This document shows positions 3,987 to 44,228 of a stretch of 44,228 bases of DNA, one piece after another. How positions within the stretch are numbered: the first letter of the stretch is position 1; each line of letters opens with the position of its first letter. The stretch comes from Escherichia phage BUCT825. The notes under the pieces were generated by a model that worked only from the letters and a program-made list of their open reading frames with translations, had not been told where the DNA came from and ran no database searches. Where the stretch lies: sequence record PV040721.1, one strand, 5' to 3'. The translations under genes and the position numbers were made by a program.

Positions 3987-4015
3987 ACTATAATAGCTAA
4001 CTATTCAGGTGTCAA
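3987..4015 (-). promoter_or_regulatory. sigma70-like promoter, minus strand (-35 TTGACA 4010-4015, -10 TATAGT 3987-3992)
   Basis: Reverse complement TTGACA-N17-TATAGT; conserved with 578-606 and 7083-7111. Confidence 0.65.
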
Positions 4016-6826: not shown

Positions 6827-7054
6827 TTACTCACCGTCGCCTTCAGTAAGGCTATCGTCTATTAGTTCAAATTTACCGTTTGAGTGTTGAATAGCTTCTT
6901 GCCCGCAATGGTCACAGACAACAAGTTTATCGAACCCATCAAACTCATCCCCTACTACGCAAGAAAGTACAAATTTATGTTTTGTGCACACTTCTTGCGG
7001 AGCGCCGAAAATTGCTCGAAAACCTTTAGCTATGGCCCCAGTGATTGTGTTCAT
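6827..7054 (-). CDS. small Cys-rich (zinc-finger-like) protein (75 aa)
   Basis: Cys pairs CTKHKFVLSC and CDHCGQ; SD GAGAGGGG upstream. Confidence 0.5.
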   Translation of the reverse strand: MNTITGAIAKGFRAIFGAPQEVCTKHKFVLSCVVGDEFDGFDKLVVCDHCGQEAIQHSNGKFELIDDSLTEGDGE

Positions 7055-7082
7055 ATCTGCCCCTCTCGTTTGGTATGGGCTA

Positions 7083-7111
7083 ACTATAATAGCGAACTAT
7101 TCACATGTCAA
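7083..7111 (-). promoter_or_regulatory. sigma70-like promoter, minus strand (-35 TTGACA 7106-7111, -10 TATAGT 7083-7088), divergent from the Cro-like gene
   Basis: Reverse complement TTGACATGTGAATAGTTCGCTATTATAGT. Confidence 0.65.
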
Positions 7112-7175
7112 TGGGCTTTTCTAAAATAATTAATATGGTACTATTCACATATCAACTGACTAAGGAGTAACTGAC

Positions 7176-7391
7176 ATGCAACCATCTGAACTAGGCATCC
7201 GTGTAGAGCAACGCCGTAAAGAACTCGGTATCTCCCAGCGCCGTCTGGCTGTTCTGGCCGGCGTTTCCCAGGGCGCGATTAACCAGCTTGCACTCGGGGT
7301 AACTCAGGACGTACGCCCGGCAACGCTGTTTAAACTGGCGGAAGTGCTGGAAGTAGACGCCAAGTGGCTGGCGCTAGGTGAAGGGGCGTAA
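7176..7391 (+). CDS. XRE/Cro-like helix-turn-helix transcriptional regulator (71 aa)
   Basis: HTH signature ISQRRLAVLAGVSQGAINQL; SD TAAGGAG upstream; only plus-strand gene in a minus-strand module. Confidence 0.75.
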   Translation: MQPSELGIRVEQRRKELGISQRRLAVLAGVSQGAINQLALGVTQDVRPATLFKLAEVLEVDAKWLALGEGA

Positions 7392-7406
7392 CGCCCCTTT
7401 CTTTTT
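7382..7406 (+). terminator. Intrinsic terminator whose loop is the Cro-like stop codon
   Basis: AGGGGCG-TAA-CGCCCCT followed by TTCTTTTT. Confidence 0.6.
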
Positions 7407-7408
7407 AC

Positions 7409-9667
7409 CTATTCCAAATCCTCCTCTGTCACCACCAGCATCTCATTTGGTTCGTATAGTGTCTTCGGCCTTAATCTATCACCTATTCTTTCGGGTATCC
7501 GGTATGTGCCGGGGACAACTTCACCGTTAACATCACATCCGAGCATCAACTCCCCGTCTTTCAGCATCTTCTCGAGATGATGGTTGGTGATGGCGTGGTC
7601 CCCCGAGTTCGCCACTATCTGCCGTTGGGTAAAACCTCGTCCGGTGTCGTCGGACTGTTGCAGGTCTTCCAGCGCGGCGAGTATTGATTCCTTACGCCCT
7701 TCATCCTTCCCGCGTTTTACAGCATTATTTACGTTTTCTTTACCTTCTTTAGTTAACCCTTCTTCCCGCTCCTTCTCCTCGTCAGTTTTGAACGGCTCGA
7801 AGCCCCACGGCATCAGCACAAGCGCCTTGTGCGGCTCAGGCAGATCGAGGTTTACGATTGTGCCGTATTCCTCTGTGCTACCGAGGAACTCAACTGCACG
7901 GTATTCTTTCGGAGGCGGGGCTTCACGGAACTGTACCGACTCCAGAACCATGCCAACCGTTTTCTGTTGAGGCCCATGCTTAAATTTCGAGTGGTATACG
8001 TTTATCTGGCGGTCGGTAGCGCGCTCAATTGTCAGCTCCACATCAACACCGGCATACAGCGCCCCGCTACCACGGGCTTTCTTTCCACCCTTAGGCGTAT
8101 GGTGGACGACACCCACAGCGGCTTTAGTTGCGTCGCGTACTTTTTTAAGGATGGCGATAACTTTACCCATGCCAATTGCAGTTGATGAACTGTTCTCGTC
8201 GAACTTGTCAATTGTCAGGGCCAGCGTCTGGTTGAGGGTATCGAACGCGACCATACCAATAGGCTCGTCCCCTGCAGCTTCACGCATCCTGCGGATTAGC
8301 GCGGGGATTTTTTTATCACCATGCGCAGCGAGCACCTCACCCATATCAATGACATGTACGTAATCTTTACCTTCCTCGCCGTATTTAGCCGCGAGCGCGT
8401 CAATACGTGTGCGTGTAGCTGCGCCTCCCTCACCGTCGATATAGAAATGGTGGCAACGCTGGGTATCCGCCCCGGCAAACCGGTATCCGGCGGCGCTCAG
8501 GTACATCATCCCCAGCGTATAGAACGATTTGTACGTGCCGGATTCCCCAACAATATCCCAGATACAATCTGACGGCATGTACCCCTCAACGACGAAATCA
8601 GCCTTTACCGGTTCCGGTAGCTCGTCCTCTTCTGAGTCATCATCGTCTTCCAGGTCGTCGAGGCTGCATGAAACAGATTCACGCGCACCCCATCCGATAG
8701 CCTCGGCGACTTCACTGAACGGCAGCCCGGTCGCATCACACGCGTATTTCCACACCTCTTTCGGCGACATGCCTTCGGTTGCCGTGATGTCGGTGTCGTG
8801 AATCATCGTTACGTTCGGCGCTTCATATCCCTCGCGCGGGAAGCACAGCAGGAAGTCGTCCGGGCGCGGGGTCGGGTCGCTGTAGTTTTCTGCGTGTTCT
8901 GGCGTAGCTGGCATCTTAAGGCCACGCGGCGTCATGATGCCGCCGTACTCGAATGCCAGTGCTTCAAACGCATCTGTAAACGCGGTGCGCAGTTCTTCCG
9001 GTATCTGGTAATCAGATGCGCTGCTGATGTCAACGGCTGGGACGCCTTCCAGTAACTCATCAGGGTCAATCAGGTCGTTGCGGCGCGACCAGATAACAGT
9101 AGAGCCAACTGGCGGCAGGTACATCGGCTGCGACAGAGTGAACCCGCTGCGGTCCGCGCCCATGCCTTTGAAGAAGTGCTCCAGTAATCCATGGCGAACA
9201 CGGATGATGCCGCCACCTTCAACCGGGCGGGCCAGCGGCATGACGACGCGAAAGCGCGGCGACTCGTCGGTATGTGATGCCGTGGTGTAGAGACACATCG
9301 CCTGGCGGCTGCGCTTAACCAGGCGCACCGCTTCCCGATACTCTTCCGGTGTTGCGCTATCGAAGTCAAGATACGCCAGCGACGATTTGCTTACAGACGC
9401 ATCACAGCGATAGAAGAAGCCTTTACGCGCTTGCTTAAAGTCACCGGTTTCCGGGTCTTTTACGGTGCTGTGTGTGGAGTCGCACGCGGCGGTGATATAA
9501 CCGGGTGCGGTCTTCGGGTTAATTCCGTCACGGACAGCATCAAGCGGCTGGATTAAATCTTTCAGGTCGCCCAGCGTTGCCGTGTGTGTGGTTCTGACGT
9601 TTATATCCTTTTTCTCGGCCCGCGCGTTGCGACGAGACCACGAGTAGGATAAAATTACATCGGACAT
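7409..9667 (-). CDS. Primase-helicase (N-terminal primase/polymerase-like region plus RecA-like P-loop ATPase), 752 aa
   Basis: Walker A GESGTYKS, HHTPKGG motif typical of RepA/AAA_25-type helicases; large N-terminal domain; C-terminal winged-helix-like tail. Confidence 0.75.
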   Translation of the reverse strand: MSDVILSYSWSRRNARAEKKDINVRTTHTATLGDLKDLIQPLDAVRDGINPKTAPGYITAACDSTHSTVKDPETGDFKQARKGFFYRCDASVSKSSLAYLDFDSATPEEYREAVRLVKRSRQAMCLYTTASHTDESPRFRVVMPLARPVEGGGIIRVRHGLLEHFFKGMGADRSGFTLSQPMYLPPVGSTVIWSRRNDLIDPDELLEGVPAVDISSASDYQIPEELRTAFTDAFEALAFEYGGIMTPRGLKMPATPEHAENYSDPTPRPDDFLLCFPREGYEAPNVTMIHDTDITATEGMSPKEVWKYACDATGLPFSEVAEAIGWGARESVSCSLDDLEDDDDSEEDELPEPVKADFVVEGYMPSDCIWDIVGESGTYKSFYTLGMMYLSAAGYRFAGADTQRCHHFYIDGEGGAATRTRIDALAAKYGEEGKDYVHVIDMGEVLAAHGDKKIPALIRRMREAAGDEPIGMVAFDTLNQTLALTIDKFDENSSSTAIGMGKVIAILKKVRDATKAAVGVVHHTPKGGKKARGSGALYAGVDVELTIERATDRQINVYHSKFKHGPQQKTVGMVLESVQFREAPPPKEYRAVEFLGSTEEYGTIVNLDLPEPHKALVLMPWGFEPFKTDEEKEREEGLTKEGKENVNNAVKRGKDEGRKESILAALEDLQQSDDTGRGFTQRQIVANSGDHAITNHHLEKMLKDGELMLGCDVNGEVVPGTYRIPERIGDRLRPKTLYEPNEMLVVTEEDLE

Positions 9668-9725
9668 GTTATATTTCCTTCAGCAAGTAATTTAGCCTCG
9701 GCGTTCACCGCGTCGGGGCTTTCTT

Positions 9726-9959
9726 TTATTCCAGGTCTTCTAAAGTAGCGGTCATTCCGCGAACTTCGGCAACAGCACTATATTTCCCGCCAACATTTTT
9801 CACGACACCAGATTTAACCAGTACCTTCAACGACCCTTCAATAATGGCGGAACTATAGTACCTAAAATAACTACGGCGCAAGTCCATAACGCTGCACGAC
9901 CCTTTTTTACAGGTTAATGAAACGACTGCCGTAAATACGCGGGACTGGAACTCGGTCAT
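9726..9959 (-). CDS. hypothetical protein (77 aa)
   Basis: ORF with stop/start overlap to upstream gene. Confidence 0.5.
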   Translation of the reverse strand: MTEFQSRVFTAVVSLTCKKGSCSVMDLRRSYFRYYSSAIIEGSLKVLVKSGVVKNVGGKYSAVAEVRGMTATLEDLE

Positions 9960-10126
9960 TTTACATTCTCCTTAATCCACGCTTCCACTTTCTCCGGGTT
10001 GAAAGTACCCGGCTGCCGGCGGCCCATAATACGGATACAACAATCCGGGAACTTCCCACTCTTTAACCAGTTATTCAGCGTGCGACGGGTAACCCCAATA
10101 CGCTCGGCTACTTCATTCTGTGTCAT
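9956..10126 (-). CDS. small HTH DNA-binding protein (AlpA/excisionase-like fold), about 56 aa
   Basis: MTQNEVAERIGVTRRTLNNWLKSGKFP; ATG at 10126 with GGGGGT SD; the longer ORF to 10159 would overlap the -10 of its own promoter. Confidence 0.6.
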   Translation of the reverse strand: MTQNEVAERIGVTRRTLNNWLKSGKFPDCCIRIMGRRQPGTFNPEKVEAWIKENVK

Positions 10127-10158
10127 TCTCAAACCCCCATTATCAGTTAACGAAACCA

Positions 10159-10187
10159 AGTATACATTGCGAATAATGGGAAATCAA
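10159..10187 (-). promoter_or_regulatory. sigma70-like promoter, minus strand (-35 TTGATT, 17-bp spacer, -10 TATACT)
   Basis: Reverse complement TTGATT-N17-TATACT directly upstream of the small HTH gene. Confidence 0.55.
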
Positions 10188-10202
10188 ACATAATCGCACC
10201 TA

Positions 10203-10231
10203 TTGACATTAAGAAAATCTTCGTTTAAGGT
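10203..10231 (+). promoter_or_regulatory. candidate promoter, plus strand (-35 TTGACA, 17-bp spacer, -10 TAAGGT)
   Basis: Perfect -35 with correct spacing; weak -10; back-to-back with the minus promoter. Confidence 0.35.
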
Positions 10232-10467
10232 GCTTCTATATCTTAGTTACTTTGATTCCTGTTCACCTTGTAAAACCCGCCGAAAACGAGCGCCCAACGC
10301 GAAGTGTTAGGCGGCAGTTTACTGAACATTCGAATTATCGTAACTTTCCTTCCTAAGTATCTCCGGTTGCCCTGGGCAAGCTCTATTCCCATCGGCGGAA
10401 TATATCTTAAGTATCTGATTTTCTTAAAGTGCCGTAGATTCGCAACCGTAAAAATGTAACGATTATT

Positions 10468-10488
10468 GGGCAGGCTTAGGGCCTGCCC
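10468..10488 (+). terminator. Hairpin GGGCAGGC-TTAGG-GCCTGCCC followed by TTTAGTT (terminator-like) inside the 450-bp noncoding region
   Basis: 8-bp perfect stem read directly. Confidence 0.35.
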
Positions 10489-10570
10489 TTTAGTTACCAA
10501 GTAATAAGAATAAAGGCACAACCCTACCTGAAGAATCACAACGGCAACGTAACCATTTTCAATGAATCTC

Positions 10571-10599
10571 TTGCACACCCCAACATAATAGGTTACTAT
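10571..10599 (+). promoter_or_regulatory. Early-type promoter (-35 TTGCAC, 17-bp spacer, -10 TACTAT followed by TCAC)
   Basis: TTGCACACCCCAACATAATAGGTTACTATTCAC; near-identical copies at 12262-12290 (+) and 32118-32146 (-). Confidence 0.6.
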
Positions 10600-10633
10600 T
10601 CACTTATTGAAACTAGACAGAGGAGTTAGGGTT

Positions 10634-10819
10634 ATGTTTAAGAAGGGTCAGTTGGCTAAAACGAAACGCGGCGGACAGTACGTAATAGTTACCCAGGACG
10701 AAAATGAATACAGTATCGCTGTAGATGTATGGGGTCTTATACGAAAGAAACATGGTTACGCCTTCCGCGATAATTTAAAACTCATCGGCAACAATTTTAA
10801 ATTCAAAGGGGCGAAGTGA
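10634..10819 (+). CDS. hypothetical small protein (61 aa)
   Basis: ATG with SD GAGGAG; first gene after promoter. Confidence 0.5.
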   Translation: MFKKGQLAKTKRGGQYVIVTQDENEYSIAVDVWGLIRKKHGYAFRDNLKLIGNNFKFKGAK

Positions 10820-11064
10820 TGTTTAATCATATAATTAAATACGACTATCGCGATGGGGTTAAACTCGCCAAACATGATATAGAAACATGGTGCGGCTGTA
10901 AGCCTCAATTTAGTGATTGGTTGTTTCAGGACGCACAGCACGCCCTGTTAGTTATGGAGCAGGGAGGGAGAATTATGCCGTGCAAAAGTTGCCTGAAAAA
11001 TATAATCAAAACGGCATCGAATCATGATGCTCGTGCCGACGACTCTGAGGGAGGTTGCCGTTAA
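10819..11064 (+). CDS. hypothetical Cys-rich protein (81 aa)
   Basis: ATG overlaps upstream stop (TGATG); CGC...CKSC motifs. Confidence 0.5.
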   Translation: MFNHIIKYDYRDGVKLAKHDIETWCGCKPQFSDWLFQDAQHALLVMEQGGRIMPCKSCLKNIIKTASNHDARADDSEGGCR

Positions 11065-11255
11065 TGAAAATTCGTATAACTGATGTTGATTATGTTCTTC
11101 CGCCTGGTTATGGCGATCATTCTTTGCGCCACTTTGGTGTTTCAGTAGGTGATGAGTTTGAGGTTACGTCCTGTAACGACTACGGGTGCATAGTCAAACA
11201 TTGCGGGGAGGAACTGTACGTGCGTAGACGTGAGTATGTGATTATTGAGGACTAA
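11064..11255 (+). CDS. hypothetical protein (63 aa), paralog of next gene
   Basis: MKIRITD...FGVSVGD; start overlaps upstream stop. Confidence 0.5.
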   Translation: MKIRITDVDYVLPPGYGDHSLRHFGVSVGDEFEVTSCNDYGCIVKHCGEELYVRRREYVIIED

Positions 11256-11258
11256 GTT

Positions 11259-11414
11259 ATGAGAATCCGTATAACTGACCGCAGGCTTATAGATTTCGGT
11301 ATCTCGGTAGGTGATGTTTTTCTGGCGTTCAGCAGCAACCATTATGGTTTTATGATTGAGTACAAAGGGTCGTTATTGTTCGTGTATCGGGATGAATGCG
11401 AGGTTATGGTATGA
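11259..11414 (+). CDS. hypothetical protein (51 aa), paralog of previous gene
   Basis: Manual translation MRIRITDRRLIDFGISVGDVF... shares MxIRITD and FGxSVGD with upstream gene. Confidence 0.4.
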   Translation: MRIRITDRRLIDFGISVGDVFLAFSSNHYGFMIEYKGSLLFVYRDECEVMV

Positions 11415-11605
11415 GTCCGTATAACGAATTCCGCTTACGCCGTCTGATTGGCGGTCTGCGCGCCGCCGAGTTTGGTGTTGAATGCTGGGAAAAGGCGAAG
11501 TACACCCCGTTGAAGTCGTGGCATTTGGCTCATGCTAAGGAGGTAGCACAGTACCGTGAGTACAAGTTAAACAGTTTTCTTAAGCACCACGGGGTTGAGT
11601 TATGA
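11411..11605 (+). CDS. hypothetical protein (64 aa)
   Basis: ATGA overlap with upstream stop. Confidence 0.45.
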   Translation: MSPYNEFRLRRLIGGLRAAEFGVECWEKAKYTPLKSWHLAHAKEVAQYREYKLNSFLKHHGVEL

Positions 11606-11745
11606 GAGAGGCATTCGAACGGTGGGCCATCGTCGAGGGTCTGCCGGTTAACAAGGGTTCAAAGAAAGAGTACCTGAACGTTAAGACACGTCTCGCGTGG
11701 CGGGCGTGGAAAGCTGGTGTTCAAACTGCGATGAATACGAGGTGA
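11602..11745 (+). CDS. hypothetical protein (47 aa)
   Basis: Manual translation MREAFERWAIVEGLPVNKGSKKEYLNVKTRLAWRAWKAGVQTAMNTR; ATGA overlap. Confidence 0.35.
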   Translation: MREAFERWAIVEGLPVNKGSKKEYLNVKTRLAWRAWKAGVQTAMNTR

Positions 11746-11748
11746 GAT

Positions 11749-11949
11749 ATGGGTGAGTGGATTAAGTGTAGTGAGATGCTGCCGGGCAACGGTAGTGCAG
11801 ATAAAGAATTCCTGGTGTATGAAACGTTAAATAACGCAGTTCAACACGATTATTACATCGTTCCTGATGACGGGAGAAAGCCTTTCTGGAATCACTACGA
11901 TAAGTACGTGACTCACTGGATGCCGTTACCTGAGCCGCCGGAAGTGTGA
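11749..11949 (+). CDS. hypothetical protein (66 aa)
   Basis: ORF with ATG start; W- and P-rich small protein. Confidence 0.45.
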   Translation: MGEWIKCSEMLPGNGSADKEFLVYETLNNAVQHDYYIVPDDGRKPFWNHYDKYVTHWMPLPEPPEV

Positions 11950-11981
11950 TGTTCAATAGTTTGGGATTTTACTGAGTGACT

Positions 11982-12037
11982 TACGCTGCTACACAGCAGC
12001 GTACAACTTTAACTTAGTGTCGTCAAAAGGCGACACT
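11982..12037 (+). other. Two tandem stable hairpins in an intergenic gap (TACGCTGCT-ACAC-AGCAGCGTA and AGTGTCG-TCAAAAGG-CGACACT)
   Basis: Perfect 9-bp and 7-bp stems read directly; no strong U-tract. Confidence 0.4.
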
Positions 12038-12083
12038 TTCACCAAACGCAACAATCGAAGCGACTATTGCAGGAGACGCAACA

Positions 12084-12254
12084 ATGAAACTGAATGACAT
12101 CGTAACCTGGACCGGTAGAAACGGAGAAAAGCGATTCGGGCTTATTGTTGCGTCAGACGGCAACAAGTACCGTGTTATGCGCTGGTGCCAGTGGGCCAGA
12201 CGCCCGAGGTACTACTGGATTCGTGGCGAACGATTATCTTTAAAACACCAATAA
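12084..12254 (+). CDS. hypothetical protein (56 aa)
   Basis: Manual translation MKLNDIVTWTGRNGEKRFGLIVASDGNKYRVMRWCQWARRPRYYWIRGERLSLKHQ; SD AGGAG. Confidence 0.4.
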   Translation: MKLNDIVTWTGRNGEKRFGLIVASDGNKYRVMRWCQWARRPRYYWIRGERLSLKHQ

Positions 12255-12261
12255 AATTTAC

Positions 12262-12290
12262 TTGCACACTAAGATAGAATAGGCTACTAT
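12262..12290 (+). promoter_or_regulatory. Early-type promoter (-35 TTGCAC, 17-bp spacer, -10 TACTAT followed by TCA)
   Basis: TTGCACACTAAGATAGAATAGGCTACTATTCA. Confidence 0.6.
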
Positions 12291-12322
12291 TCATTTACAC
12301 AGACGAGACAGAGGAAAACGAA

Positions 12323-21329: not shown

Positions 21330-21339
21330 GTTCACCTAT

Positions 21340-21360
21340 AGCCCCGAAAGGGGCTTTCTT
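21340..21360 (+). terminator. Intrinsic terminator (AGCCCC-GAAA-GGGGCT followed by TTCTT)
   Basis: GNRA-type loop hairpin after portal gene. Confidence 0.65.
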
Positions 21361-21365
21361 ACAGT

Positions 21366-22442: not shown

Positions 22443-22903
22443 TGATGGGCTTTTTCAAAGTAACTGATGTACCGTCGCGTCGCGTAGTCCAGTACGCCCG
22501 TGTGCCTGGCTCCGGCGAGAACGTGGTATTTATTGAAGATGAAAGTGTACTGGGTGCGCCCGTAGACGATATGCCGTTTGCAGATAAAACCGGTATTGCG
22601 CTACCGGCGGCGGGCATGCTTTATGAGATTCAGTACCTGGCGGATGCTGGTGATGTGTATTTCTCCGTACAACCGCAGGACGCTGAACTGGCAGACGGCA
22701 GCGCAAATATCGCTGTCGAAGTTAAGGCGGGCAAAGCACCATATGCGCTGACCTGGTACAAAGACGGGAAGGAAGTGGTTAACGCCCCGGAAGAGGCTTT
22801 GTCTCTGACGGTTAATTCTGTTGGGGAATACTTCGTTAAAGTTACTGATGCCGATGGTGTAGAGGCCGTCAGTAAAGCGGCGAAGGTCACTAAGCCAGAA
22901 TAA
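22442..22903 (+). CDS. Ig-like domain protein (153 aa), possible capsid decoration/accessory protein
   Basis: C-terminal Ig-like pattern PYALTWYKDGKEV...VGEYFVKVTDADG. Confidence 0.55.
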   Translation: MMGFFKVTDVPSRRVVQYARVPGSGENVVFIEDESVLGAPVDDMPFADKTGIALPAAGMLYEIQYLADAGDVYFSVQPQDAELADGSANIAVEVKAGKAPYALTWYKDGKEVVNAPEEALSLTVNSVGEYFVKVTDADGVEAVSKAAKVTKPE

Positions 22904-22908
22904 ACTGA

Positions 22909-22929
22909 AGCCCCGAAAGGGGCTTTTTA
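22909..22929 (+). terminator. Intrinsic terminator (AGCCCC-GAAA-GGGGCT followed by TTTTAG)
   Basis: Same hairpin as at 21340. Confidence 0.65.
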
Positions 22930-22978
22930 GTGCCTGTGATTATTCCAGTTATTCCACTCAATTGTAAATGTTGGAATA

Positions 22979-28080: not shown

Positions 28081-28493
28081 TGGGCTACTTTGAGGACTTA
28101 ACAAAAGCGTTTGATGTGCCGCTGGTAGCCTTCGGAACCGCCAACGGCATCAAAGTCGCGCTTGAAAATATCGGCGCACCGACGTCAACCGATACACCAT
28201 ATCTGGCAAGTTACATGTTGCTGGCGGATACGGAACAGGCGGATTTGTTCTTCACGGAACAACGCGCTGGCGTCTATCAGGTAGATATTAACTACGCATC
28301 GGTGAAAGGTAGCGCGCCAATCAATAAAATGGCAGACTTACTTAACACGGCGTTTAAAGCAGGTAAGTCATTTTCACGTAACGACATCTGCGCCGAGGTT
28401 CAATCGGTTAGCCTGGGGCCGCTGATTGTAGAAAACGGATGGGCCAAACGACCATTGTCAATTAACTTTATTGCATTCACCAAGAGGCTGTGA
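28077..28493 (+). CDS. tail terminator-like protein (138 aa)
   Basis: Position immediately upstream of major tail gene. Confidence 0.45.
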   Translation: MMGYFEDLTKAFDVPLVAFGTANGIKVALENIGAPTSTDTPYLASYMLLADTEQADLFFTEQRAGVYQVDINYASVKGSAPINKMADLLNTAFKAGKSFSRNDICAEVQSVSLGPLIVENGWAKRPLSINFIAFTKRL

Positions 28494-29662
28494 ATATGGC
28501 TACAACTCCTTTTAAGGGCGCGAATACTGCGCAATTCTATGTGGCAGAAACTATCCCCGGCGTAACACCAAGTAACCCGGTCTGGTCGCCATTGCGCAAT
28601 ACGGGCGGCGTTCCCGCCATTACCCGCGACACGCTGACCTCCAACGAACTGGACGGCAGCCGTGAAACTACGTCCATCCGCACCGGTAACAAACAGGTTA
28701 GCGGGGAATACGCCATCGAGCTTAGCTCGAAAAGCCAGGACGACTGGTTAGCTGGGGCTTTAGGTTCTACGTGGCAATCCGGTGTTTCTCTGTCCGGTCT
28801 GTCTATTACCGTCGCCCCGGCGGGAAAGACGTTCACCCGTGCTGATGGCAGCTTTATTACCGACGGCGTTGAAGTGGGTGACCTGATTGCGTTTACCGAC
28901 TTAACGGGTGATAACGCCAAACCGTTTATTGTTACTGCAGTAACGGCTACGGTTGTTACTGGTGCGGGCATCCAACACACCCTGACCACCGAGACAAAAA
29001 CTAGTAAGGCTAAAACTGGCGACACGTTGGAAACCGGTAACGCGTGTAAGACGTTCTCTATCCTTACCTGGTACAAAGGCCAGTGCGGCGGTACTGACGC
29101 GTACACGTTAACCAAAGGCGTGGAAGTTTCTGGTTTTACCATCGAACAGGCTGTTAACGCGATGGTAACTGGCAGCTTCCCATTCATCGGTCGCAGTCAG
29201 GAGATTCTCACTACGCCGCCGACCGGTTCCAACTTCTCATCTGTTACTTTTGGTGATGAGCCGTTCTCTTCGGTTGACGTTTCCGTGTTCGACGGCTCTA
29301 CGCCGTTGCGTTGCGACAGTCTGACTATCACCAACGATAACAGCGCGTCCGCGCAGTTCGAACTTGGTAACACTAACGTAGCGTTTGTGGAGCGTAGCCG
29401 TGCAGCTAACACCTTCTCCATCTCCGGTAAGCTGTATGACATGGCGATGATTCAGAAGTTTATCAACGAGCAGCAGGTAGAGATTAACTCCATTCTGGCG
29501 GGGGTAAACGGGGCTATGTCTTTCAGTTTGAAACGTGCAGAGCTTACGGCGGTCACACCTGAGATTGGTGGCCCTGAGTCAATCACTCAGTCTATTGAAG
29601 GCCAGGCCACCGGCAACCAGTACCAGTCGTCTATCGTAATTCAACGTATTAGTTACGCGTAA
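28490..29662 (+). CDS. major tail (tube) protein, 390 aa
   Basis: Large Thr/Ser/Gly-rich protein followed by strong terminator; position before chaperone/TMP block. Confidence 0.55.
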   Translation: MNMATTPFKGANTAQFYVAETIPGVTPSNPVWSPLRNTGGVPAITRDTLTSNELDGSRETTSIRTGNKQVSGEYAIELSSKSQDDWLAGALGSTWQSGVSLSGLSITVAPAGKTFTRADGSFITDGVEVGDLIAFTDLTGDNAKPFIVTAVTATVVTGAGIQHTLTTETKTSKAKTGDTLETGNACKTFSILTWYKGQCGGTDAYTLTKGVEVSGFTIEQAVNAMVTGSFPFIGRSQEILTTPPTGSNFSSVTFGDEPFSSVDVSVFDGSTPLRCDSLTITNDNSASAQFELGNTNVAFVERSRAANTFSISGKLYDMAMIQKFINEQQVEINSILAGVNGAMSFSLKRAELTAVTPEIGGPESITQSIEGQATGNQYQSSIVIQRISYA

Positions 29663-29666
29663 AACT

Positions 29667-29690
29667 AAGGCCCCGAAAGGGGCCTTTTCC
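29667..29690. terminator. Bidirectional intrinsic terminator (AAGGCCCC-GAAA-GGGGCCTT) between convergent tail-tube and kinase genes
   Basis: 8-bp stem flanked by A-run upstream and T-run downstream; near-identical copy at 42199-42222. Confidence 0.7.
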
Positions 29691-30245
29691 CTACAAACCT
29701 AATTTTAAAGCAATGTCTATAACGTTCGATTTAACGTCACCTGGTATGATGTAGGTGTCGTAATCTTTTACACCATCAACGCCATACAGATAGCCACGGC
29801 TGTCCCCTTCAAACGTATAGCCGTCTCTGTGCAAGCGAACAATTCTTACGTCATGCCCAGCGGCGACGATAGGGACCACTTCACTGGCGAATCCACCGTC
29901 GGACACTACAAAAACTTCGTCGCCGTCAGGCAAGTTTTCAGCGAGATATTTACCGAAATAATCGCTGCCGAGGGCCGGTTTAATGAATTGTTCAGAGATA
30001 GCAATCATGAACCGACGGCGCGACAACCCATTAAGGAAACCTTCTGGCTTTTCTTTCCTGGCCCGGTCGTCGTAGCCGTCGAGAAACTCGTGGTAAGCAT
30101 CCGGGCCTAACGCAGCCATAGCGATATTGAACATCGGATTCTTGAAACTGGTAGTTCCTTTCGCAAAGCCCATTTCTACCAGTGCCATAGCAAGCGTGTC
30201 TTTCCCGCAACCCGCAGGGCCATTAAGAATAATTACCTTAGCCAT
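29691..30245 (-). CDS. P-loop nucleotide kinase, T4 Dnk-like (dNMP kinase family), 184 aa
   Basis: Walker A ILNGPAGCGKDT resembles T4 Dnk LSGVKRSGKDT; start overlaps HAD stop by 1 nt. Confidence 0.7.
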   Translation of the reverse strand: MAKVIILNGPAGCGKDTLAMALVEMGFAKGTTSFKNPMFNIAMAALGPDAYHEFLDGYDDRARKEKPEGFLNGLSRRRFMIAISEQFIKPALGSDYFGKYLAENLPDGDEVFVVSDGGFASEVVPIVAAGHDVRIVRLHRDGYTFEGDSRGYLYGVDGVKDYDTYIIPGDVKSNVIDIALKLGL

Positions 30246-30730
30246 TATTTATCGCTCCCATGTGGTTTTAAGTGTGTAGAGTTCCCGTTACAGTCGTATT
30301 CAGTAACCGCGTGAGTGGTTATGCCGAGTTCGCGGAAATGCTTTATTACCGCTGGCGAGTCGTCGAATGCACACAAGATTCTTTCCAGCCCAATAGCACG
30401 CAACACCTCTTCTTTAATTACGATGTCTTTTCTGTTGTCGTGTTTGCTGCGCATGATTAGCTGATAAAATTCGACGCGGTGGCGCTGCAACCACATTCTG
30501 GTTTCTTTTTCTGCATCATCACTACGGCCCGTTAAAATGATAACGGCATAGCGACGATTGAGGGCGTTACACAGTTCTATGTTATCTCTAATTGGTTCAT
30601 CATCTTTGCACGCCATGTTAAAGGGCTTCCACGCCCATGTTTCGTTGTAGTTATCTTTCGGCAGCAGGTGCAAACGATGTGTCCCATCCGCCAATGTCCC
30701 GTCTAAATCGAAAATTACAATATCTTTCAT
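30245..30730 (-). CDS. HAD-family phosphatase resembling the T4 Pnkp 3'-phosphatase domain, 161 aa
   Basis: Motif I IFDLDGTLA; ILTGR; KDIVIKEEV; FDDSP pattern parallels T4 Pnkp IFDVDGTLA / VVVSGR / KDDVVKEEI / IDDR. Confidence 0.7.
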   Translation of the reverse strand: MKDIVIFDLDGTLADGTHRLHLLPKDNYNETWAWKPFNMACKDDEPIRDNIELCNALNRRYAVIILTGRSDDAEKETRMWLQRHRVEFYQLIMRSKHDNRKDIVIKEEVLRAIGLERILCAFDDSPAVIKHFRELGITTHAVTEYDCNGNSTHLKPHGSDK

Positions 30731-31857
30731 CCCAGCATCTCCGGTGAAATAGTTAAACGTGCGACCTCGCCAAATTCGGCGCTATAAGTAATTACATTTG
30801 CACTACGGCCCGACATCCAACCTCCGCGGGAGGCGTAGGCGTCTTTAGCCGCTAAGGTGCGGTGTTGCTCAACAATCATGTTACGGCTTTCTACAATCTT
30901 CTGGTGGTGCAGATGGCCTACGTGGGCGTAGCTGTAAACACTCTCGCCGAACGCTTTACGGAACTTGGCAATCATAACAGGTTCAATAGCGTCGAATCGT
31001 GCTTTATGCCCGTGATGGAAGAACAGCGTCGTTTTGCCGTGTTGCACCATCTTGTAAACATCCGGTGACGTATCGACGAACACACGCGGCTCATTGTCAT
31101 ACAGCGTACTGAACATCTCAGCCAACCAAATCATGCCACTTTCGTCGTGATTCCCTTGCACGATAAGCAAGCGAACATTTTTATGCTTAACCAGCGCCAT
31201 ATCGACAACACGGCGGACCATGCGAATCATGTAGCGGACAAGTTTCTGGTAACGGGTGTCGGCGTCAAGGGCGTGACCGCTTGCAGGTGTAACGGCAACC
31301 AGACTATCGAAGTGCGCGAAGTCGCCCAGCAGGTTAATAACCCCAGTCCCCGCATCCGGTGCTTTCTGGAATGCCGCATCGAACCAACGGGAGAACAGGT
31401 CTTCTGCAATCTTCATATCCCAGTCGTCGCCACTCTCGTCGGCCCAGGCCAGCATACCGAGATGGAAATCAGACACAGTGTAAAGGTTGAGTAGCTTGTC
31501 GTCCCGTTTGGCGCGAACGGCTTTAACAGGAGCAACGGGGGTAATCTCCGACTTCATGCCCTCGATTATGGCTTTCATCAACTCGACCTGACGTTCGGCA
31601 TCGGTGTCGGTCTTAACCCATTGCAGTTTAGTGTTGCCTAACTCATCAACCAGAGACGATGTACCCTTAATCTTGTAGCCGTCCGGCACAAGGTGGCTAA
31701 CGTCACGCCCGTGGCCTACGCCTTTCTTCGCTAGTTTCGCTTTACGGATACGAATAACGCGGTCTGAGATGCCGTATTTACGAGCAATGTCGATATTCTT
31801 CATCCCAGCGTTCAATTCTTCCTGTAACTGTTCGTCGGTTATTTTCTTCTGGGCCAT
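30727..31857 (-). CDS. Calcineurin-like metallophosphoesterase with N-terminal sigma-region-4-like HTH (about 376 aa; longer ORF to 31962 less likely)
   Basis: Motifs DFH, GDFAHFD, VQGNHDE, FHHGH, HVGHLHH; N-terminal NIDIARKYGISDRVIRIRKAKL; ATG 31857 with SD GAGGAA. Confidence 0.7.
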   Translation of the reverse strand: MAQKKITDEQLQEELNAGMKNIDIARKYGISDRVIRIRKAKLAKKGVGHGRDVSHLVPDGYKIKGTSSLVDELGNTKLQWVKTDTDAERQVELMKAIIEGMKSEITPVAPVKAVRAKRDDKLLNLYTVSDFHLGMLAWADESGDDWDMKIAEDLFSRWFDAAFQKAPDAGTGVINLLGDFAHFDSLVAVTPASGHALDADTRYQKLVRYMIRMVRRVVDMALVKHKNVRLLIVQGNHDESGMIWLAEMFSTLYDNEPRVFVDTSPDVYKMVQHGKTTLFFHHGHKARFDAIEPVMIAKFRKAFGESVYSYAHVGHLHHQKIVESRNMIVEQHRTLAAKDAYASRGGWMSGRSANVITYSAEFGEVARLTISPEMLG

Positions 31858-31895
31858 GCCTATTTCCTCGTGTTTAGGATTTGTCTTATAGTAGC

Positions 31896-32087
31896 CTACT
31901 TCTCTTTCACGTTCGAGTTGCAAGCCCAGATTAAAATAAATACCCACGGCAGCAGAACCCAACCAAGAAACAGATTAGCCATGAATATCGCTAACTTCGC
32001 TTTATGGTTACGGAAGTACGCAACCAGGAAAGGCGCGAAATAAGCGAGCAGTGCAAACAGAATTAAGGAAACTGGTAAACTGGACAT
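31896..32087 (-). CDS. small 2-TM membrane protein (about 63 aa), first gene of antisense cassette
   Basis: Hydrophobic segments LPVSLILFALLAYFAPFLVAYF and LFLGWVLLPWVFILIWA; SD GAAGGGG. Confidence 0.5.
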   Translation of the reverse strand: MSSLPVSLILFALLAYFAPFLVAYFRNHKAKLAIFMANLFLGWVLLPWVFILIWACNSNVKEK

Positions 32088-32117
32088 TTTAAACCCCTTC
32101 ATTGTTGGTGTAAGTGA

Positions 32118-32146
32118 ATAGTACCCTATTATATTGGGGTACGCAA
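32118..32146 (-). promoter_or_regulatory. Early-type promoter on minus strand (-35 TTGCGT, 17-bp spacer, -10 TACTAT followed by TCAC) driving the antisense cassette
   Basis: Reverse complement TTGCGTACCCCAATATAATAGGGTACTATTCAC, nearly identical to the promoter at 10571-10599. Confidence 0.6.
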
Positions 32147-32253
32147 GTAGTGTGTTAGAATAAGTTTGCGCCTAGTGTCGCACACGAAAAGCGGGTGGTT
32201 CCCGTCTGGCGCGTCAACCTTAACCTGTAACCTCTTAACCAAAGGATTAAAGA

Positions 32254-39239: not shown

Positions 39240-42194
39240 ATGTCAAGCGGATGCGGTGACGTTTTAAGCTTGGCGGATTTACAAACCGCCAAGAAACACC
39301 AGATTTTCGAAGCTGAGGTTATTACCGGTAAATCCGGCGGTGTTGCTACTGGTGCTGATATTGATTACGCGACCAACGCAGTTACAGGGCAGACACAGAA
39401 GACACTGCCGGCTGTGTTGCGTGACGCAGGTTTTAAACTGGCAGATTTTGATTTCACGTCAGGCGGTACACTATCCGCTAACGACCGAAACACCGCAGTT
39501 TTGTGGCCGTCGTCCTCTGGCGGTGACGGGGATTGGTACTATTGGTTGGGTGCTCTGCCAAAAATTATCCCAGCGTCATCTTCTCCGCAGTCCACCGGTG
39601 GCGTGGCAGATGGGGCGTGGCAACCCGTCGGGTCGGTCGTACTGAGGCAGCAAATATCTAATGTAAACGGTGCAACTCTGTACCCAGATTTACATATGGC
39701 GCGATGGAAGGACGAATACGACCTACGCGCATGGGGCGCCGTGGGCGACGGTGTAACTGATGATACTCAATCTATTTTTAATGTATTAGCAGCTTCTCCC
39801 AACAATTGGATTATAGACGGCAGGGGTTTGACTTATAAAGTTTCCCAATTACCGGACATTAGTAAATTTAAGAATGCTGCATTCGTTTACGAGCGCGTAG
39901 CCGGGCAACCGCTTACTTATGTAGCTGATGGCTTCTTTAACAGCTCACTAACTAAGGTGACGGATACCCCGTTCTACAACGCATGGACGCAGGATAAAAC
40001 TTTCGTCTACGACCATGTTATTTACGCCCCGTTTATGGCGGGCGAACGACATGGCGTTCAAAACTTACATGTAGCTTGGGTTCGCTCTGGTGACGACGGG
40101 CAGACTTGGTCAATGCCTGAGTGGTTGACTCCAATCCATGCCGACTATAATGCCAGTGTTTCTGCAGACAGAGTTAACTACCACTGCATGAGCATGGGTA
40201 CGTGCGGCAACCGATTATATGCAGTTATAGAAACCCGCTACTTGTCTAATATGCGGATGAAGAAGGCAGAACTTTGGTCACGCCCGATGCCGTATTTTAG
40301 ACACCCAACCGGCGGAATAACTATTAGTTCTGGCTCCACTACTGCTACCATTGTTATAGAAAATCATGGCCTAAAAGCAGGAGATGCGGTTAACTTCTCT
40401 AATACATCGGCAACTGGCGTATCGGGTAATATGACGGTTGCGTCTATAATTAACCGAAATACGTTCACTGTTACGCTCTCAAGCCCTGCGGGTTCCACCA
40501 TAAACAATGCGGGGGTTACCTGGAACTTCGCAACGCGATTCTGGGACAGCCCGTGGGAAATTACCGAATTGCCGGGGGTGGCATACTCCACTAACGCTGA
40601 TTTGTGTGTCACGGAGACACATAGTTTTGCGGTTATAGATGATACTAACTACACTATCGCTGTCGGCTACCACAACGGCGATGTGTCCCCTCGTCGTCTT
40701 GGCGTCTTGTATTTTAGTAACGTTTATGACAACCCAGGCGTATTCGTTCGTCGCACTGTCGCTCAGGCATACGCTGATAACGCTTCTGAACCGTGCGTGA
40801 AAAGTTATGGAGGTGTGCTCTACCTTACCACACGCGGCACATTACCTACTTCCCCTGGCTCTACACTGGCGATGAGCACCGATTCTGGGCAAAACTGGAG
40901 CTACTTGCGATTTCCGAACAATGTACATCACTCCAATCTTCCGTTCGCTAAAGTAGGTGACTATCTCTACATCTTTGGTACAGAACGTGCCTTTGGCGAG
41001 TGGGAAGGGGGTGCGCCGGACAGCCGCTATGAAGGTTCGTATCCACGGACCTTTATGTGCAAAGTTAATGTGTCGTCATGGCCTTCATCTTTAGATGATG
41101 TTCAGTGGTTTAATATTACCGACCAAATATACCAGGGCCATATCGTTAACTCTGCAGTCGGCGTCGGCTCTGTCTGTGTTAAAGATGGCTGGTTGTACTA
41201 TATCTTTGGAGGGGAAGACTTCTTCTCTCCCTGGAGCATAGGGGATAACAGTGCGAAGTTATGGTACAAACATGATGGGCACCCGGCTGACTTATATAGC
41301 TACCGGATAAAGATTGAAGACCACCCGTATGTGTCACGTGATTTCAAATACGGAGCAACTCCTAACCGTACACTACCTGTCGCAATGGGTGTAGATGGTG
41401 TCCGTCATGTAGAAGCACCTTTGACGTTTGACAATGATGTAAGCGTGTACTCCCTGCGTGTAACGGGGTTGGAATACGACGGCACACAACAGTCTGCCGT
41501 GCGTGCGCGGTTTGATGGTGATTACGGGCTGATTTCAAAAACAGTCCCGACTAAAACTCCATCTGCTCAACGACTGATTGTTAGTGGCGGTGATGGCGCA
41601 TCCAGTTCCGACGGTGCATTGCTGCAGCTGTACGGGTCGAACCATGCAACGCCTAACAGGGCTATTATGTATGCGTCAGGAGGCTTCTACTCATACGCCA
41701 ATTTCCTTCCTTACTTAGACTCGCAAGTGTCTTTAGGTTCGGCAAGTAATAGGTGGACTACGGTGTACGCGACCACCGGTACGATAAACACGTCTGACGG
41801 TACACTTAAGACGAACAAAGAGGAAATTGAGGAACAACTCCTTACCGCGTGGGAAGATATACATGTAATATCTTTTAAGTGGCTTGAAAGCCTAGCAACC
41901 AAAGGTGACACTGCAAGGATACACTTCGGTGTGATAGCCCAAGATGTGCGAGACATATTGGTCAAACATGGGCTTATGGAGAAAGATTCTACCGATTGTA
42001 AATATGCTTTCTTGTGCTACGACTCAATTGAAGCTGCGTATGATATTGATGAAGATGGACGGACTGTACAAGTATCCCCTCCCGGCGGCAGATGGGGGGT
42101 TAGGGCGGACCAGATGTTCTTCATAGAGATTGCGTATCAGCGTAAGAAGATGCGCGAGTTCGAGAAGAGGCTGGCAGCACTAGAAGATAAATAA
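39240..42194 (+). CDS. tailspike: endosialidase-like (sialidase Asp-boxes) with C-terminal intramolecular chaperone (peptidase S74-like) domain, 984 aa
   Basis: Asp-boxes SGDDGQTW and STDSGQNW; C-terminal NTSDGTLKTNKEEIEE auto-cleavage-type motif (Ser codon 41793-41795); SD AGAGGA. Confidence 0.75.
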   Translation: MSSGCGDVLSLADLQTAKKHQIFEAEVITGKSGGVATGADIDYATNAVTGQTQKTLPAVLRDAGFKLADFDFTSGGTLSANDRNTAVLWPSSSGGDGDWYYWLGALPKIIPASSSPQSTGGVADGAWQPVGSVVLRQQISNVNGATLYPDLHMARWKDEYDLRAWGAVGDGVTDDTQSIFNVLAASPNNWIIDGRGLTYKVSQLPDISKFKNAAFVYERVAGQPLTYVADGFFNSSLTKVTDTPFYNAWTQDKTFVYDHVIYAPFMAGERHGVQNLHVAWVRSGDDGQTWSMPEWLTPIHADYNASVSADRVNYHCMSMGTCGNRLYAVIETRYLSNMRMKKAELWSRPMPYFRHPTGGITISSGSTTATIVIENHGLKAGDAVNFSNTSATGVSGNMTVASIINRNTFTVTLSSPAGSTINNAGVTWNFATRFWDSPWEITELPGVAYSTNADLCVTETHSFAVIDDTNYTIAVGYHNGDVSPRRLGVLYFSNVYDNPGVFVRRTVAQAYADNASEPCVKSYGGVLYLTTRGTLPTSPGSTLAMSTDSGQNWSYLRFPNNVHHSNLPFAKVGDYLYIFGTERAFGEWEGGAPDSRYEGSYPRTFMCKVNVSSWPSSLDDVQWFNITDQIYQGHIVNSAVGVGSVCVKDGWLYYIFGGEDFFSPWSIGDNSAKLWYKHDGHPADLYSYRIKIEDHPYVSRDFKYGATPNRTLPVAMGVDGVRHVEAPLTFDNDVSVYSLRVTGLEYDGTQQSAVRARFDGDYGLISKTVPTKTPSAQRLIVSGGDGASSSDGALLQLYGSNHATPNRAIMYASGGFYSYANFLPYLDSQVSLGSASNRWTTVYATTGTINTSDGTLKTNKEEIEEQLLTAWEDIHVISFKWLESLATKGDTARIHFGVIAQDVRDILVKHGLMEKDSTDCKYAFLCYDSIEAAYDIDEDGRTVQVSPPGGRWGVRADQMFFIEIAYQRKKMREFEKRLAALEDK

Positions 42195-42198
42195 AACT

Positions 42199-42222
42199 AA
42201 GGCCCCAAACGGGGCCTTTTCT
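42199..42222. terminator. Bidirectional intrinsic terminator (AAGGCCCC-AAAC-GGGGCCTT), repeat of 29667-29690
   Basis: Same stem and flanks as 29667 with different loop. Confidence 0.7.
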
Positions 42223-42360
42223 CTACTCTTCCGATAACTTCTCCAGTACAAACGCCAGTTGCGCATTAGCGGCGTCTCTCTGTTGCCGTAGTCGCAGAAC
42301 CTCCTCTTCGAGTTCCTTGATACGTTTTTGCAATGCCGGAATCGGGGCTATGATGTTCAT
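42220..42360 (-). CDS. putative 46-aa coiled-coil peptide downstream of SNF2 helicase
   Basis: Manual translation MNIIAPIPALQKRIKELEEEVLRLRQQRDAANAQLAFVLEKLSEE; ATGA overlap with SNF2 stop. Confidence 0.3.
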
Positions 42361-43781: not shown

Positions 43782-44228
43782 GATTAGCCTCGTAAACTGC
43801 TTTTGCGAAACCCCTCGGAGTAAGGCTACGGATTGTTTTTGTCCGCACTGATTTACCGCCTAATTTATTGTGTTGGTCAGAGTAACCGTCAGCCACGGCG
43901 ACACATGATTTAACAGGCATCACAAAACCGTTACCCGCCCAAATACATGTCTTCTTAGGGTACGCGTCCCGTGGTTTTATGTATTCAGAGAACATTGGGT
44001 GCGTGTCGTTTTCCGGTAGATAACCGCCGTATTCGTAGGGATTGAACACATAGTCGGGCCTACGCCATAAAGACGAAAGAACGCTAACAGGGTTCTCAAT
44101 CATATACGGTACGTTGTACTTTTTAGCCAGACGCGCTGCCACTTTGCATGTAATCACAGCCTCTACCTGAAACGTTGGGTTTTTCTTCCGCTTTGTTTCG
44201 AAATGCGCAGCCCCACTAACGGCTAAAT
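43774..44228 (-). CDS. DNA (cytosine-5)-methyltransferase-like protein, C-terminal part (N-terminal part at 1-356 across circular junction)
   Basis: Track ORF 43774-44157 is open upstream to the window edge; frame continues into 128-356; contains ENPV and GNGFVMPV motifs. Confidence 0.6.
   Translation of the reverse strand, partial: LAVSGAAHFETKRKKNPTFQVEAVITCKVAARLAKKYNVPYMIENPVSVLSSLWRRPDYVFNPYEYGGYLPENDTHPMFSEYIKPRDAYPKKTCIWAGNGFVMPVKSCVAVADGYSDQHNKLGGKSVRTKTIRSLTPRGFAKAVYEANHV
44102..44228. repeat. Right copy of exact 127-bp terminal duplication
   Basis: Identical to 1-127; implies circularised/permuted assembly or direct terminal repeat. Confidence 0.95.

Follow-up and report, generated by a model that had tools for sequence, protein, structure and literature searches.

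Why would a phage place a DNA-binding domain in front of a phosphoesterase? This question is raised by a minus-strand gene at positions 30727 to 31857 of the DNA of Escherichia phage BUCT825 (PV040721.1), whose 44,228 nucleotides form the stretch analysed here, hereafter called the window. An earlier reading of this sequence (the original prediction) had described the gene product as a metallophosphoesterase (MPE) fused to an N-terminal helix-turn-helix (HTH) domain, and had treated the fusion as unusual. We find instead that the fusion is a family-wide architecture, partly so named in public phage annotations: the window gene is one more ordinary orthologue in a very widespread, catalogued phage family (PHROG 704), and the HTH-MPE arrangement is a family trait and not a local oddity. 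We give a probability of about 0.5 to the reading that the protein is tethered to DNA and acts as a metal-dependent nuclease in phage DNA metabolism, for which we infer the substrate (DNA), the timing of expression and the physiological role. The gene and the three parts of its product are located as follows.

30727 to 31857, minus strand: coding sequence of the HTH-metallophosphoesterase, PHROG 704, 376 amino acids plus stop
31726 to 31836, minus strand: tri-helical HTH, LuxR/GerE-like, residues 8-44 (AlphaFold2 helices, Pfam GerE, hhalign and the ratio of nonsynonymous to synonymous substitution rates, dN/dS)
31546 to 31683, minus strand: beta-hairpin (residues 61-85, motif KGTSxL...QWVKT) and helix 87-104 (AlphaFold2, conservation)
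30730 to 31503, minus strand: binuclear metallophosphoesterase domain, residues 119-376, motifs I-V

Two start codons compete for this reading frame. An open reading frame (ORF) of 411 amino acids that begins with TTG spans 30727 to 31962 on the minus strand, and an internal ATG at 31857 has a GAGGAA Shine-Dalgarno (SD) sequence located 8 nucleotides upstream. The ATG is the start annotated for the orthologue in Escherichia phage vB_VIPECOTH07 (PQ417132; hereafter TH07), and the N-termini of homologues with 40-50% identity (MKIKEEVL.., MKQKITDEQF.., MAESKITDEQL..) align with it. The TTG extension, in contrast, overlaps the upstream Imm-like gene by 67 nucleotides and has no SD-like sequence. 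These observations support the start at 31857, which had also been preferred in the original prediction, and the few database entries with 406 amino acids are over-extended gene calls.

The 1131-nucleotide gene is matched by 289 phage records in a megablast search, with the best matches in Kagunavirus (Guernseyvirinae), and the window is a Kagunavirus genome. The TH07 orthologue (XLJ73898.1), with 98.3% nucleotide and 99.5% protein identity, is annotated “DNA repair exonuclease, phrog_704”, and the window protein matches the phrog_704 profile over its full length (E=8.4e-166; residues 3-375 against profile positions 1-389 of 390). A tblastn search detects the gene in 2004 of 50,697 phage records (about 4%), and a library clustered at 50% identity contains 4620 matching clusters at E<=1e-3 (1149 at E<=1e-30). 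Its carriers include phages of Escherichia, Klebsiella, Salmonella, Vibrio, Campylobacter and Rhodobacter, and the lineages covered include Guernseyvirinae, Drexlerviridae (T1-like), Dhillonvirus and Casjensviridae. Some records name the protein after its catalytic half (“DNA repair exonuclease”, “metallophosphoesterase”, “calcineurin-like phosphoesterase”, “DNA polymerase II small subunit”), and others after its N-terminus (“transcriptional regulator”, “winged helix-turn-helix domain-containing protein”, “sigma-70 region 4 domain-containing protein”), so both halves have already been seen by annotators. The PHROG 704 name “DNA repair exonuclease” is a prediction, and our literature searches found no functional (biochemical or genetic) study of this family.

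The catalytic half carries the complete set of calcineurin-like motifs that had been read from the sequence: D130-x-H132 (DFH), G178-D179-x-x-H182 (GDFAH), G235-N236-H237-D238 (GNHD), H281-H282-G283-H284 (HHGH) and G314-H315-x-H317 (GHLHH, residues 314-318). A first homologue search gave only proteins with at least 96% identity, and the conservation alignment takes its diversity from the library of 50%-identity representatives (138 sequences, 33-50% identity). All five motifs are conserved in this alignment. Residues D130, H132, G178, D179, N236, H237, H282, G314 and H317 are invariant in 138 of 138 sequences, and H315, H182, D238 and H284 are retained in at least 90%. The seven metal ligands are among these residues, with D130, H132, D179, N236, H282 and H317 in the invariant group and H315 in the group retained in at least 90%. 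This conservation of ligands shows that the active site is intact and selected for catalysis. Motif II of the family (GDFxH, with its well-retained H182) resembles the GDLFH motif of Mre11. The corresponding Pfam models score below their gathering thresholds (Metallophos, 18.9 bits against a cut-off of 21.5; Metallophos_2, 21.4 against 27), which is a sign of divergence and not of decay. Since the family is too diverged for these models, motifs and fold decide its membership in the superfamily.

We modelled the protein with AlphaFold2 (AF2) using the 138-sequence alignment, which gave a mean predicted local distance difference test score (pLDDT) of 92.8 and a predicted template modelling score of 0.79; a model built from the single sequence was unusable (pLDDT 39) and was replaced. 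The beta-sandwich MPE fold is present, and the approximately 58 residues that follow motif V form its last core strands. In Foldseek searches, Mre11, the DP1 subunit of the archaeal polymerase PolD and the cyclic nucleotide monophosphate (cNMP) phosphodiesterase Rv0805 rank alongside one another (E about 1e-8). In a separate structural comparison, the top matches are followed by LpxH (13.7), MJ0936 (13.6), further Mre11 structures, YfcE and Vps29. From these rankings the modelled fold leans to the nuclease clade, although not decisively. A phmmer search of PDB sequences returned only spurious matches, to the STIV B204 ATPase, and the structure matches in BFVD are all uncharacterised proteins.

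The N-terminal HTH claimed in the original prediction is borne out by the AF2 model, which places helices at residues 8-16, 21-28 and 32-44 (pLDDT 79-95 across this block) ahead of a low-confidence linker whose residues 51-54 fall below pLDDT 50. The peptide that had been quoted as the recognition helix region corresponds to residues 21-46. Pfam GerE (PF00196) matches residues 14-45 of the window protein with 16.1-18.5 bits, below its gathering threshold of 23.5 (E=0.009 with the full protein as query, 0.0016 with the isolated N-terminus), and the NCBIfam model for FixJ matches the N-terminus through the C-terminal HTH of FixJ. Stronger matches are obtained when an N-terminal profile of the family is compared by hhalign: the probability is 94% for GerE (P=1.5e-7), 96.6% for the C-terminal fragment of RhlR and 92.5% for the HTH of Fis, whereas ten shuffled controls reach at most 2.9%. 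With a whole-family profile, the top PDB sequence matches are GerE, RhlR and DesR. The presence of an N-terminal HTH is therefore well beyond chance.

The same domain is carried by nearly all of the homologues. The two outcomes named in the original prediction as refuting it, a structure model without an HTH and homologues uniformly devoid of one, are thus both contradicted. In a five-fold cross-validation, the N-terminal profile matches 125 of the 135 held-out representatives, and a profile built without the window protein finds the window N-terminus at E about 1e-6. When 123 members are scanned singly against Pfam, the only families found besides Metallophos are HTH families: HTH_1 in 28 members, HTH_50 in 18, HTH_8 in 16, HTH_23 in 12, Sigma70_r4_2 in 14 (best 1.5e-9), GerE in 8 (best 2.4e-8) and Sigma70_r4 in 3. 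Taken together, the AF2 model, the hhalign comparisons with their controls, the Pfam scans and the cross-validation establish that the HTH is real, ancestral to the family and of the simple tri-helical LuxR/GerE-like kind. Since members match several HTH families, only the generic tri-helical class is secure. Of the two labels that had been attached to this region, ‘LuxR-type’ agrees with the Pfam, PDB-profile and hhalign matches, whereas ‘sigma-70 region 4’ fares less well, because the family profile aligns to region 4 of Escherichia coli RpoD with an hhalign probability of 1%, even though Sigma70_r4_2 is found in the 14 members mentioned above. LuxR/GerE-type domains (GerE, RhlR, DesR and the C-terminal domain of FixJ) are the best sequence and profile matches; their fourth (dimerisation) helix is not predicted in the window protein, which has three helices only in the AF2 model.

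Between the HTH and the MPE domain is a middle module (residues 59-104) for which the AF2 model shows strands at 61-70 and 76-85 and a helix at 87-104, followed by a second linker. In conservation it ranks second among the parts of the protein (mean identity 0.38 in the hairpin segment), and G74 and W80 are retained in at least 90% of the 138 aligned sequences. Searches of Pfam and the PDB gave no match for this module. It may form a ribbon that contacts DNA, or the interface of a dimer. Some family members (P0126, P0130, P0151, P0155, P0173, P0175 and P0211) have two tandem copies of this conserved hairpin module (xGFxIKxxS...G...) between the HTH and the MPE domain, within their N-terminal 90-100 residues.

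Patterns of substitution give further information on the two outer domains. Both are under purifying selection within Kagunavirus, where relatives with 92-96% amino-acid identity give dN/dS ratios of 0-0.10 (HTH) and 0.02-0.08 (MPE domain). In comparisons with Jerseyvirus (loci L030 and L035), dN is about 0.39 in the HTH, about 1.0 in the linker formed by residues 105-118 and about 0.03 in the MPE domain, and nucleotide identity drops only at nucleotides 1-120 (0.52-0.67) and 301-360 (about 0.53) of the gene. Across the whole family, the HTH shows the lowest conservation within the protein (19% mean identity), and its changes between Kagunavirus and Jerseyvirus concentrate in helices 2 and 3. 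The domain is thus constrained within a lineage and different between lineages, which could reflect retargeting, module exchange or weaker constraint. From the sequences, the divergence of helices 2 and 3 and of the linker suggests module exchange or a diversifying DNA-binding specificity. Because only the HTH and one linker are strongly diverged, yet the HTH is under purifying selection within each lineage, one tentative and on balance unlikely extension is that the HTH gives a nuclease its sequence or host specificity, so that the host chromosome, competing phages or defence loci would be cut in a targeted manner, with retargeting through rapid change of the recognition helix.

The surroundings of the gene indicate when it might be expressed. 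It is the second of four co-oriented minus-strand genes, which encode an Imm-like protein, the HTH-MPE protein, a Pnkp-type phosphatase and a P-loop kinase. This cassette is inverted within the tail module, where it lies between a plus-strand gene at 28490 to 29662 and the tail-assembly-chaperone gene. We take the former to encode the major tail protein, while the TH07 annotation says ‘minor tail protein’. The other elements of the cassette are given below.

31896 to 32087, minus strand: small membrane protein, Imm_superinfect, cassette gene 1 (PF14373, E=9.3e-13)
30245 to 30730, minus strand: Pnkp-type HAD 3'-phosphatase (PF25109 HAD_PNKP, E=1.5e-19)
29691 to 30245, minus strand: P-loop kinase, PHROG 139 ‘deoxynucleoside monophosphate kinase’, last cassette gene (orthologue annotation)
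32118 to 32146, minus strand: sigma-70-type cassette promoter, with TTGCGT (32146-32141), a 17-nucleotide spacer and TACTAT (32123-32118)
29663 to 29690, either strand: hairpin GGCCCC-GAAA-GGGGCC with T-runs on both strands, a likely bidirectional terminator (four-copy family, RNA fold)

The Imm-like gene, for which we use the 63-amino-acid start of TH07, is labelled ‘superinfection immunity protein’ in TH07 and in the Jerseyvirus LDW16. The P-loop matches of the kinase in Pfam are weak. A PADLOC search gave no matches for the four cassette proteins.

The promoter, which was read from the sequence and is not listed by a promoter consensus scan, has both hexamers retained in TH07 and LDW16. It carries the motif AATAGNNNNCTATTCA, which occurs 9 times in the window with at most one mismatch, against 0.04 occurrences expected. 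Copies are located at 3992-4007, 7088-7103, 7132-7147, 10587-10602 and 12278-12293 on the plus strand and at 32115-32130 on the minus strand. The motif contains the inverted repeat AATAG/CTATT, which is kept in Jerseyvirus, and it overlaps the -10 element of sigma-70-like promoters. From the sequence, AATAGNNNNCTATTCA looks like a promoter or operator class of the phage itself. In addition, the 37 nucleotides at 32111-32147 are 89% complementary to 10570-10606, the promoter that heads the plus-strand small-gene cluster. Because this promoter class is shared with the control and small-gene region, expression together with non-structural genes is indicated. We also note that one copy of the motif precedes a 71-amino-acid ORF (7176-7391, plus strand) that we tentatively equate with the 71-amino-acid ‘transcriptional regulator’ (phrog_5823) of TH07. 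A palindrome at 32121-32142 (GTACCC-N10-GGGTAC, 6-base-pair arms) was considered as an operator and rejected: it overlaps the -10 element, is unique in the window and is not conserved in TH07, and is probably incidental.

At the other end, the cassette is separated from the convergent tail gene by the hairpin at 29663-29690. This hairpin is not listed by a terminator scan; RNA folding gives an 8-base-pair central stem in a structure of -20.7 kcal/mol (z=-2.2). It belongs to a GC-rich hairpin family, GGCCCCGAAAGGGGCC, with flanking T-runs and four copies (29660-29694, 42192-42226, 21331-21365 and 22900-22934) that look like intrinsic terminators, and the copy beside the cassette could terminate transcription in both directions. 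With its own promoter of the phage class and this downstream hairpin, the cassette is, as judged from sequence features, an autonomous transcription unit. Two further observations concern the flanking DNA and the window as a whole. The intergenic region between the cassette and the tail-assembly-chaperone gene contains the element GCGCCAGACGGGAACCACCCGCTTTTCG (minus strand, 32186-32213), which is nearly invariant between Kagunavirus and Jerseyvirus while the intergenic DNA around it diverges; it may be a small stem-loop or regulatory element of the tail-chaperone/tape-measure operon. An identical direct repeat of 127 nucleotides is present at the two ends of the window (1-127 and 44102-44228), which is compatible with a terminally redundant genome or with overlapping assembly ends of a circularly permuted one.

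In other phages, the gene keeps company mostly with DNA metabolism. Upstream of it, in 30 dereplicated lineages, lie mostly genes for replication and recombination (exonucleases, endonuclease VII, NinG/Rap, primase, polymerase, helicase). What follows downstream varies and includes genes for HNH proteins, Pnkp-type phosphatase, endolysin and MazG-like proteins, and these censuses reveal no obligate partner gene. The consistent picture is that of the last gene in a DNA-metabolism block.

How these observations would combine under the nuclease reading can be outlined in a few steps. The gene would be transcribed, within the Imm-like/HTH-MPE/phosphatase/kinase unit, from a phage promoter of the control and small-gene-region class. 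The product would be a catalytically active phosphodiesterase dependent on Mn2+ or another divalent metal, and its own N-terminal LuxR/GerE-like HTH, possibly aided by the beta-hairpin, would hold the enzyme on DNA, where it would most likely act as a stand-alone DNA nuclease. Under one option, host DNA would be degraded or nicked and the kinase would help to recycle nucleotides. Under the other, DNA ends would be trimmed in phage replication, recombination or repair.

Several points weigh against this proposal. Early timing is drawn from promoter similarity only, and DNA is a presumed substrate of the PHROG 704 family. The fold ranking is indecisive, as LpxH, MJ0936, YfcE, GpdQ and Rv0805 score barely lower than the nucleases. 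The precedent formed by the mycobacteriophage proteins A10ZJ24 gp48 and Bxb1 gp47 (see below) is related only at the superfamily level, with an hhalign probability of 6%. Degradation of host DNA may already be the task of two other enzymes encoded by the phage, an exonuclease and an endonuclease. Many Kagunavirus genomes, and most lineages, lack the phosphatase/kinase pair, which therefore cannot define the function of the MPE. Finally, the terminase genes lie directly downstream of the gene in about 10 of ~26 lineages, an arrangement that would suit a late or packaging role instead. Nevertheless, each of the rival explanations that we considered fits fewer observations than a DNA-tethered nuclease does.

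The rival that survives best, although we regard it as doubtful, is nucleic-acid end healing. Here the MPE would clear 2',3'-cyclic, 3'-phosphate or otherwise blocked ends, working with the phosphatase, the kinase and, where present, a ligase, and would thereby repair phage DNA or host tRNA and other RNA cut by defence nucleases, in the manner of T4 Pnkp/Rnl or Clostridium thermocellum Pnkp. In the window, translational coupling links the MPE, HAD_PNKP and kinase genes, the phosphatase ATG overlaps the MPE stop codon (ATGA), and the HAD protein also matches Pnkp1 in the PDB (1.1e-6) and the phosphatase domain of T4 polynucleotide kinase. The trio recurs in Klebsiella phage Smiley and at loci L049 and L051, and the phosphatase follows the MPE also at L064. 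At L049 and L064 a small ATP-dependent DNA ligase is found downstream, with a P-loop kinase between phosphatase and ligase in the former (7001-10252) and an HNH gene and a dGTP diphosphohydrolase between them in the latter (7001-10564), an apparent DNA end-processing and sealing gene set. The pair itself (29691-30730) is a presence/absence polymorphism among otherwise near-identical Kagunavirus genomes (compared at loci L014, L017, L021, L022 and L024-L031), some of which carry small unrelated ORFs instead. In Jerseyvirus the slot is unchanged, with the Imm-like gene and the HTH-MPE gene kept and the phosphatase and kinase replaced by an HNH gene and others.

It is improbable, in our estimation, that the protein is a transcription factor with an enzyme domain, in which the HTH would bind phage promoters (for example in an early-to-late switch) while the MPE domain senses or consumes a phosphoester ligand. 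The original prediction had offered such a regulator coupled to a phosphoester substrate as one of its two proposals. In its favour, the domain is of the LuxR/GerE/Fis/ECF-sigma-region-4 kind (ECF, extracytoplasmic function) used by transcription factors. There is also a weak match to PHROG 836 ‘late transcriptional activator’ (E=0.0025), the gene is often directly upstream of lysis or terminase genes, and the regulatory names given in some records point the same way. The proposal as a whole is less likely because the catalytic residues are invariant while conservation is lowest in the HTH. A genome-contig scan with family member P0125 returned one locus, on Microvirga alba contig NZ_JADQDO010000016.1 (L093), and this locus has a separate PHROG 836 late activator, along with a PAPS-reductase-like gene, upstream of its HTH-MPE gene. 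Moreover, Jerseyvirus retains the repeat AATAG-N4-CTATT despite a strongly different recognition helix, and the window gene is not adjacent to late promoters.

Quite improbable is a packaging-associated nuclease, a terminase accessory that would cut or trim concatemeric or branched DNA like the HNH proteins of HK97-like phages. In its favour, the gene in the L093 region (8417-12107) is flanked by TerS and TerL, with stop and start codons that overlap by 4 nucleotides at both junctions, the order in Dhillonvirus is lysis genes, HTH-MPE, TerS, TerL, and Pfam domains of TerL are found at most 5 kb downstream in the roughly 10 of ~26 dereplicated lineages already noted; HNH genes are the commonest immediate neighbours. 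By contrast, in the window and in all Guernseyvirinae the terminase is far away and the gene is found within the tail module in reverse orientation, whereas in Drexlerviridae it ends an operon of helicase, VRR-NUC and Dam genes that is followed by the lysis cassette. Proximity to the terminase may therefore only reflect a position at the end of the replication module. Least probable of all is a small-molecule phosphodiesterase for counter-defence or host takeover (acting on cyclic (oligo)nucleotide signals, cAMP or dinucleoside polyphosphates), in which the HTH would serve only for localisation or oligomerisation, despite the place of the cNMP phosphodiesterase Rv0805 among the top Foldseek matches, the good scores of GpdQ and Ap4A hydrolase, and frequent neighbours in nucleotide metabolism (MazG-like deoxynucleoside triphosphate diphosphohydrolase, deoxynucleoside monophosphate kinase and thymidylate synthase).

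A decision between host-DNA degradation and end healing would give a function to a common phage gene, and many phages that carry PHROG 704 sit in therapeutic collections. If the targeted-cutting extension of the nuclease reading were true, the family would represent a so far unrecognised class of HTH-guided, Rad50-independent, Mre11-like nucleases, used for host takeover or counter-defence by ~4% of sequenced phages.

Comparison with known systems places the protein near, and not within, the established nuclease families. The original prediction had suggested an Mre11/SbcD-like nuclease. The leaning of the fold to the nuclease clade agrees with this suggestion, but membership in that family does not hold: the capping domain that follows the phosphoesterase domain of Mre11/SbcD is absent here (~58 residues are present beyond motif V), as is the C-terminal Rad50-binding region, and the window protein has an extra N-terminal module of HTH and hairpin. 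Sequence similarity is marginal (family-profile E about 0.6-1), and no Rad50/SbcC is found among the 75 annotated genes of the orthologous genome or in the top-25 family lists of the neighbour censuses of 30 lineages. A similar comparison applies to PolD DP1, an archaeal 3'-5' proofreading exonuclease that works only within the DP1-DP2 polymerase. Its N-terminal module is an oligonucleotide/oligosaccharide-binding fold, whereas the corresponding module here consists of the HTH, a two-stranded hairpin and a helix. The two proteins share 12% identity, and no DP2 is annotated in the orthologous genome, whose polymerase (PHROG 17 ‘DNA polymerase’) we take to be of family A. The window protein may act like a nuclease of the Mre11/DP1 type; it is not a member of either family.

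Closer in organization are stand-alone enzymes. The MPE of Pseudomonas putida is reported to be a stand-alone, Mn-dependent DNA nuclease, an endonuclease of single-stranded DNA from an Lhr-MPE-Exo-ligase repair operon (PDB 6NVO; PMC7826289), where it is encoded beside end-processing and ligase genes. One public record names a protein 98% identical to that of the window after this enzyme. In mycobacteriophage A10ZJ24, gp48 is a stand-alone, early-expressed MPE that acts as a phosphodiesterase and DNase: in vitro it digests linear, plasmid and genomic DNA, and in vivo it degrades the DNA of the host and thereby silences host defence genes (PMC12287305). Like the window protein, gp48 and its Bxb1 homologue gp47 are phage MPEs without a Rad50 partner, and they are located among replication genes. 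They differ in their N-termini: at ~255 amino acids, with motif I already at residue 10, they have no room for an HTH or hairpin. In Bxb1, gp47 is also the recombination directionality factor. Membership of the window protein in the gp47 family was considered and rejected, as hhalign gives a probability of 6% and aligns only motifs III-V. Because gp47 is related to PHROG 704 only at the superfamily level, gp48 is the nearest experimental analogue by analogy and not by orthology. The true kin of the window protein are its PHROG 704/VOG4570 relatives, such as XLJ73898.1 and the swan01 protein YP_009824285.1, which share the identical three-part architecture with no structural difference and, in Kagunavirus and Jerseyvirus, occupy the identical genomic slot.

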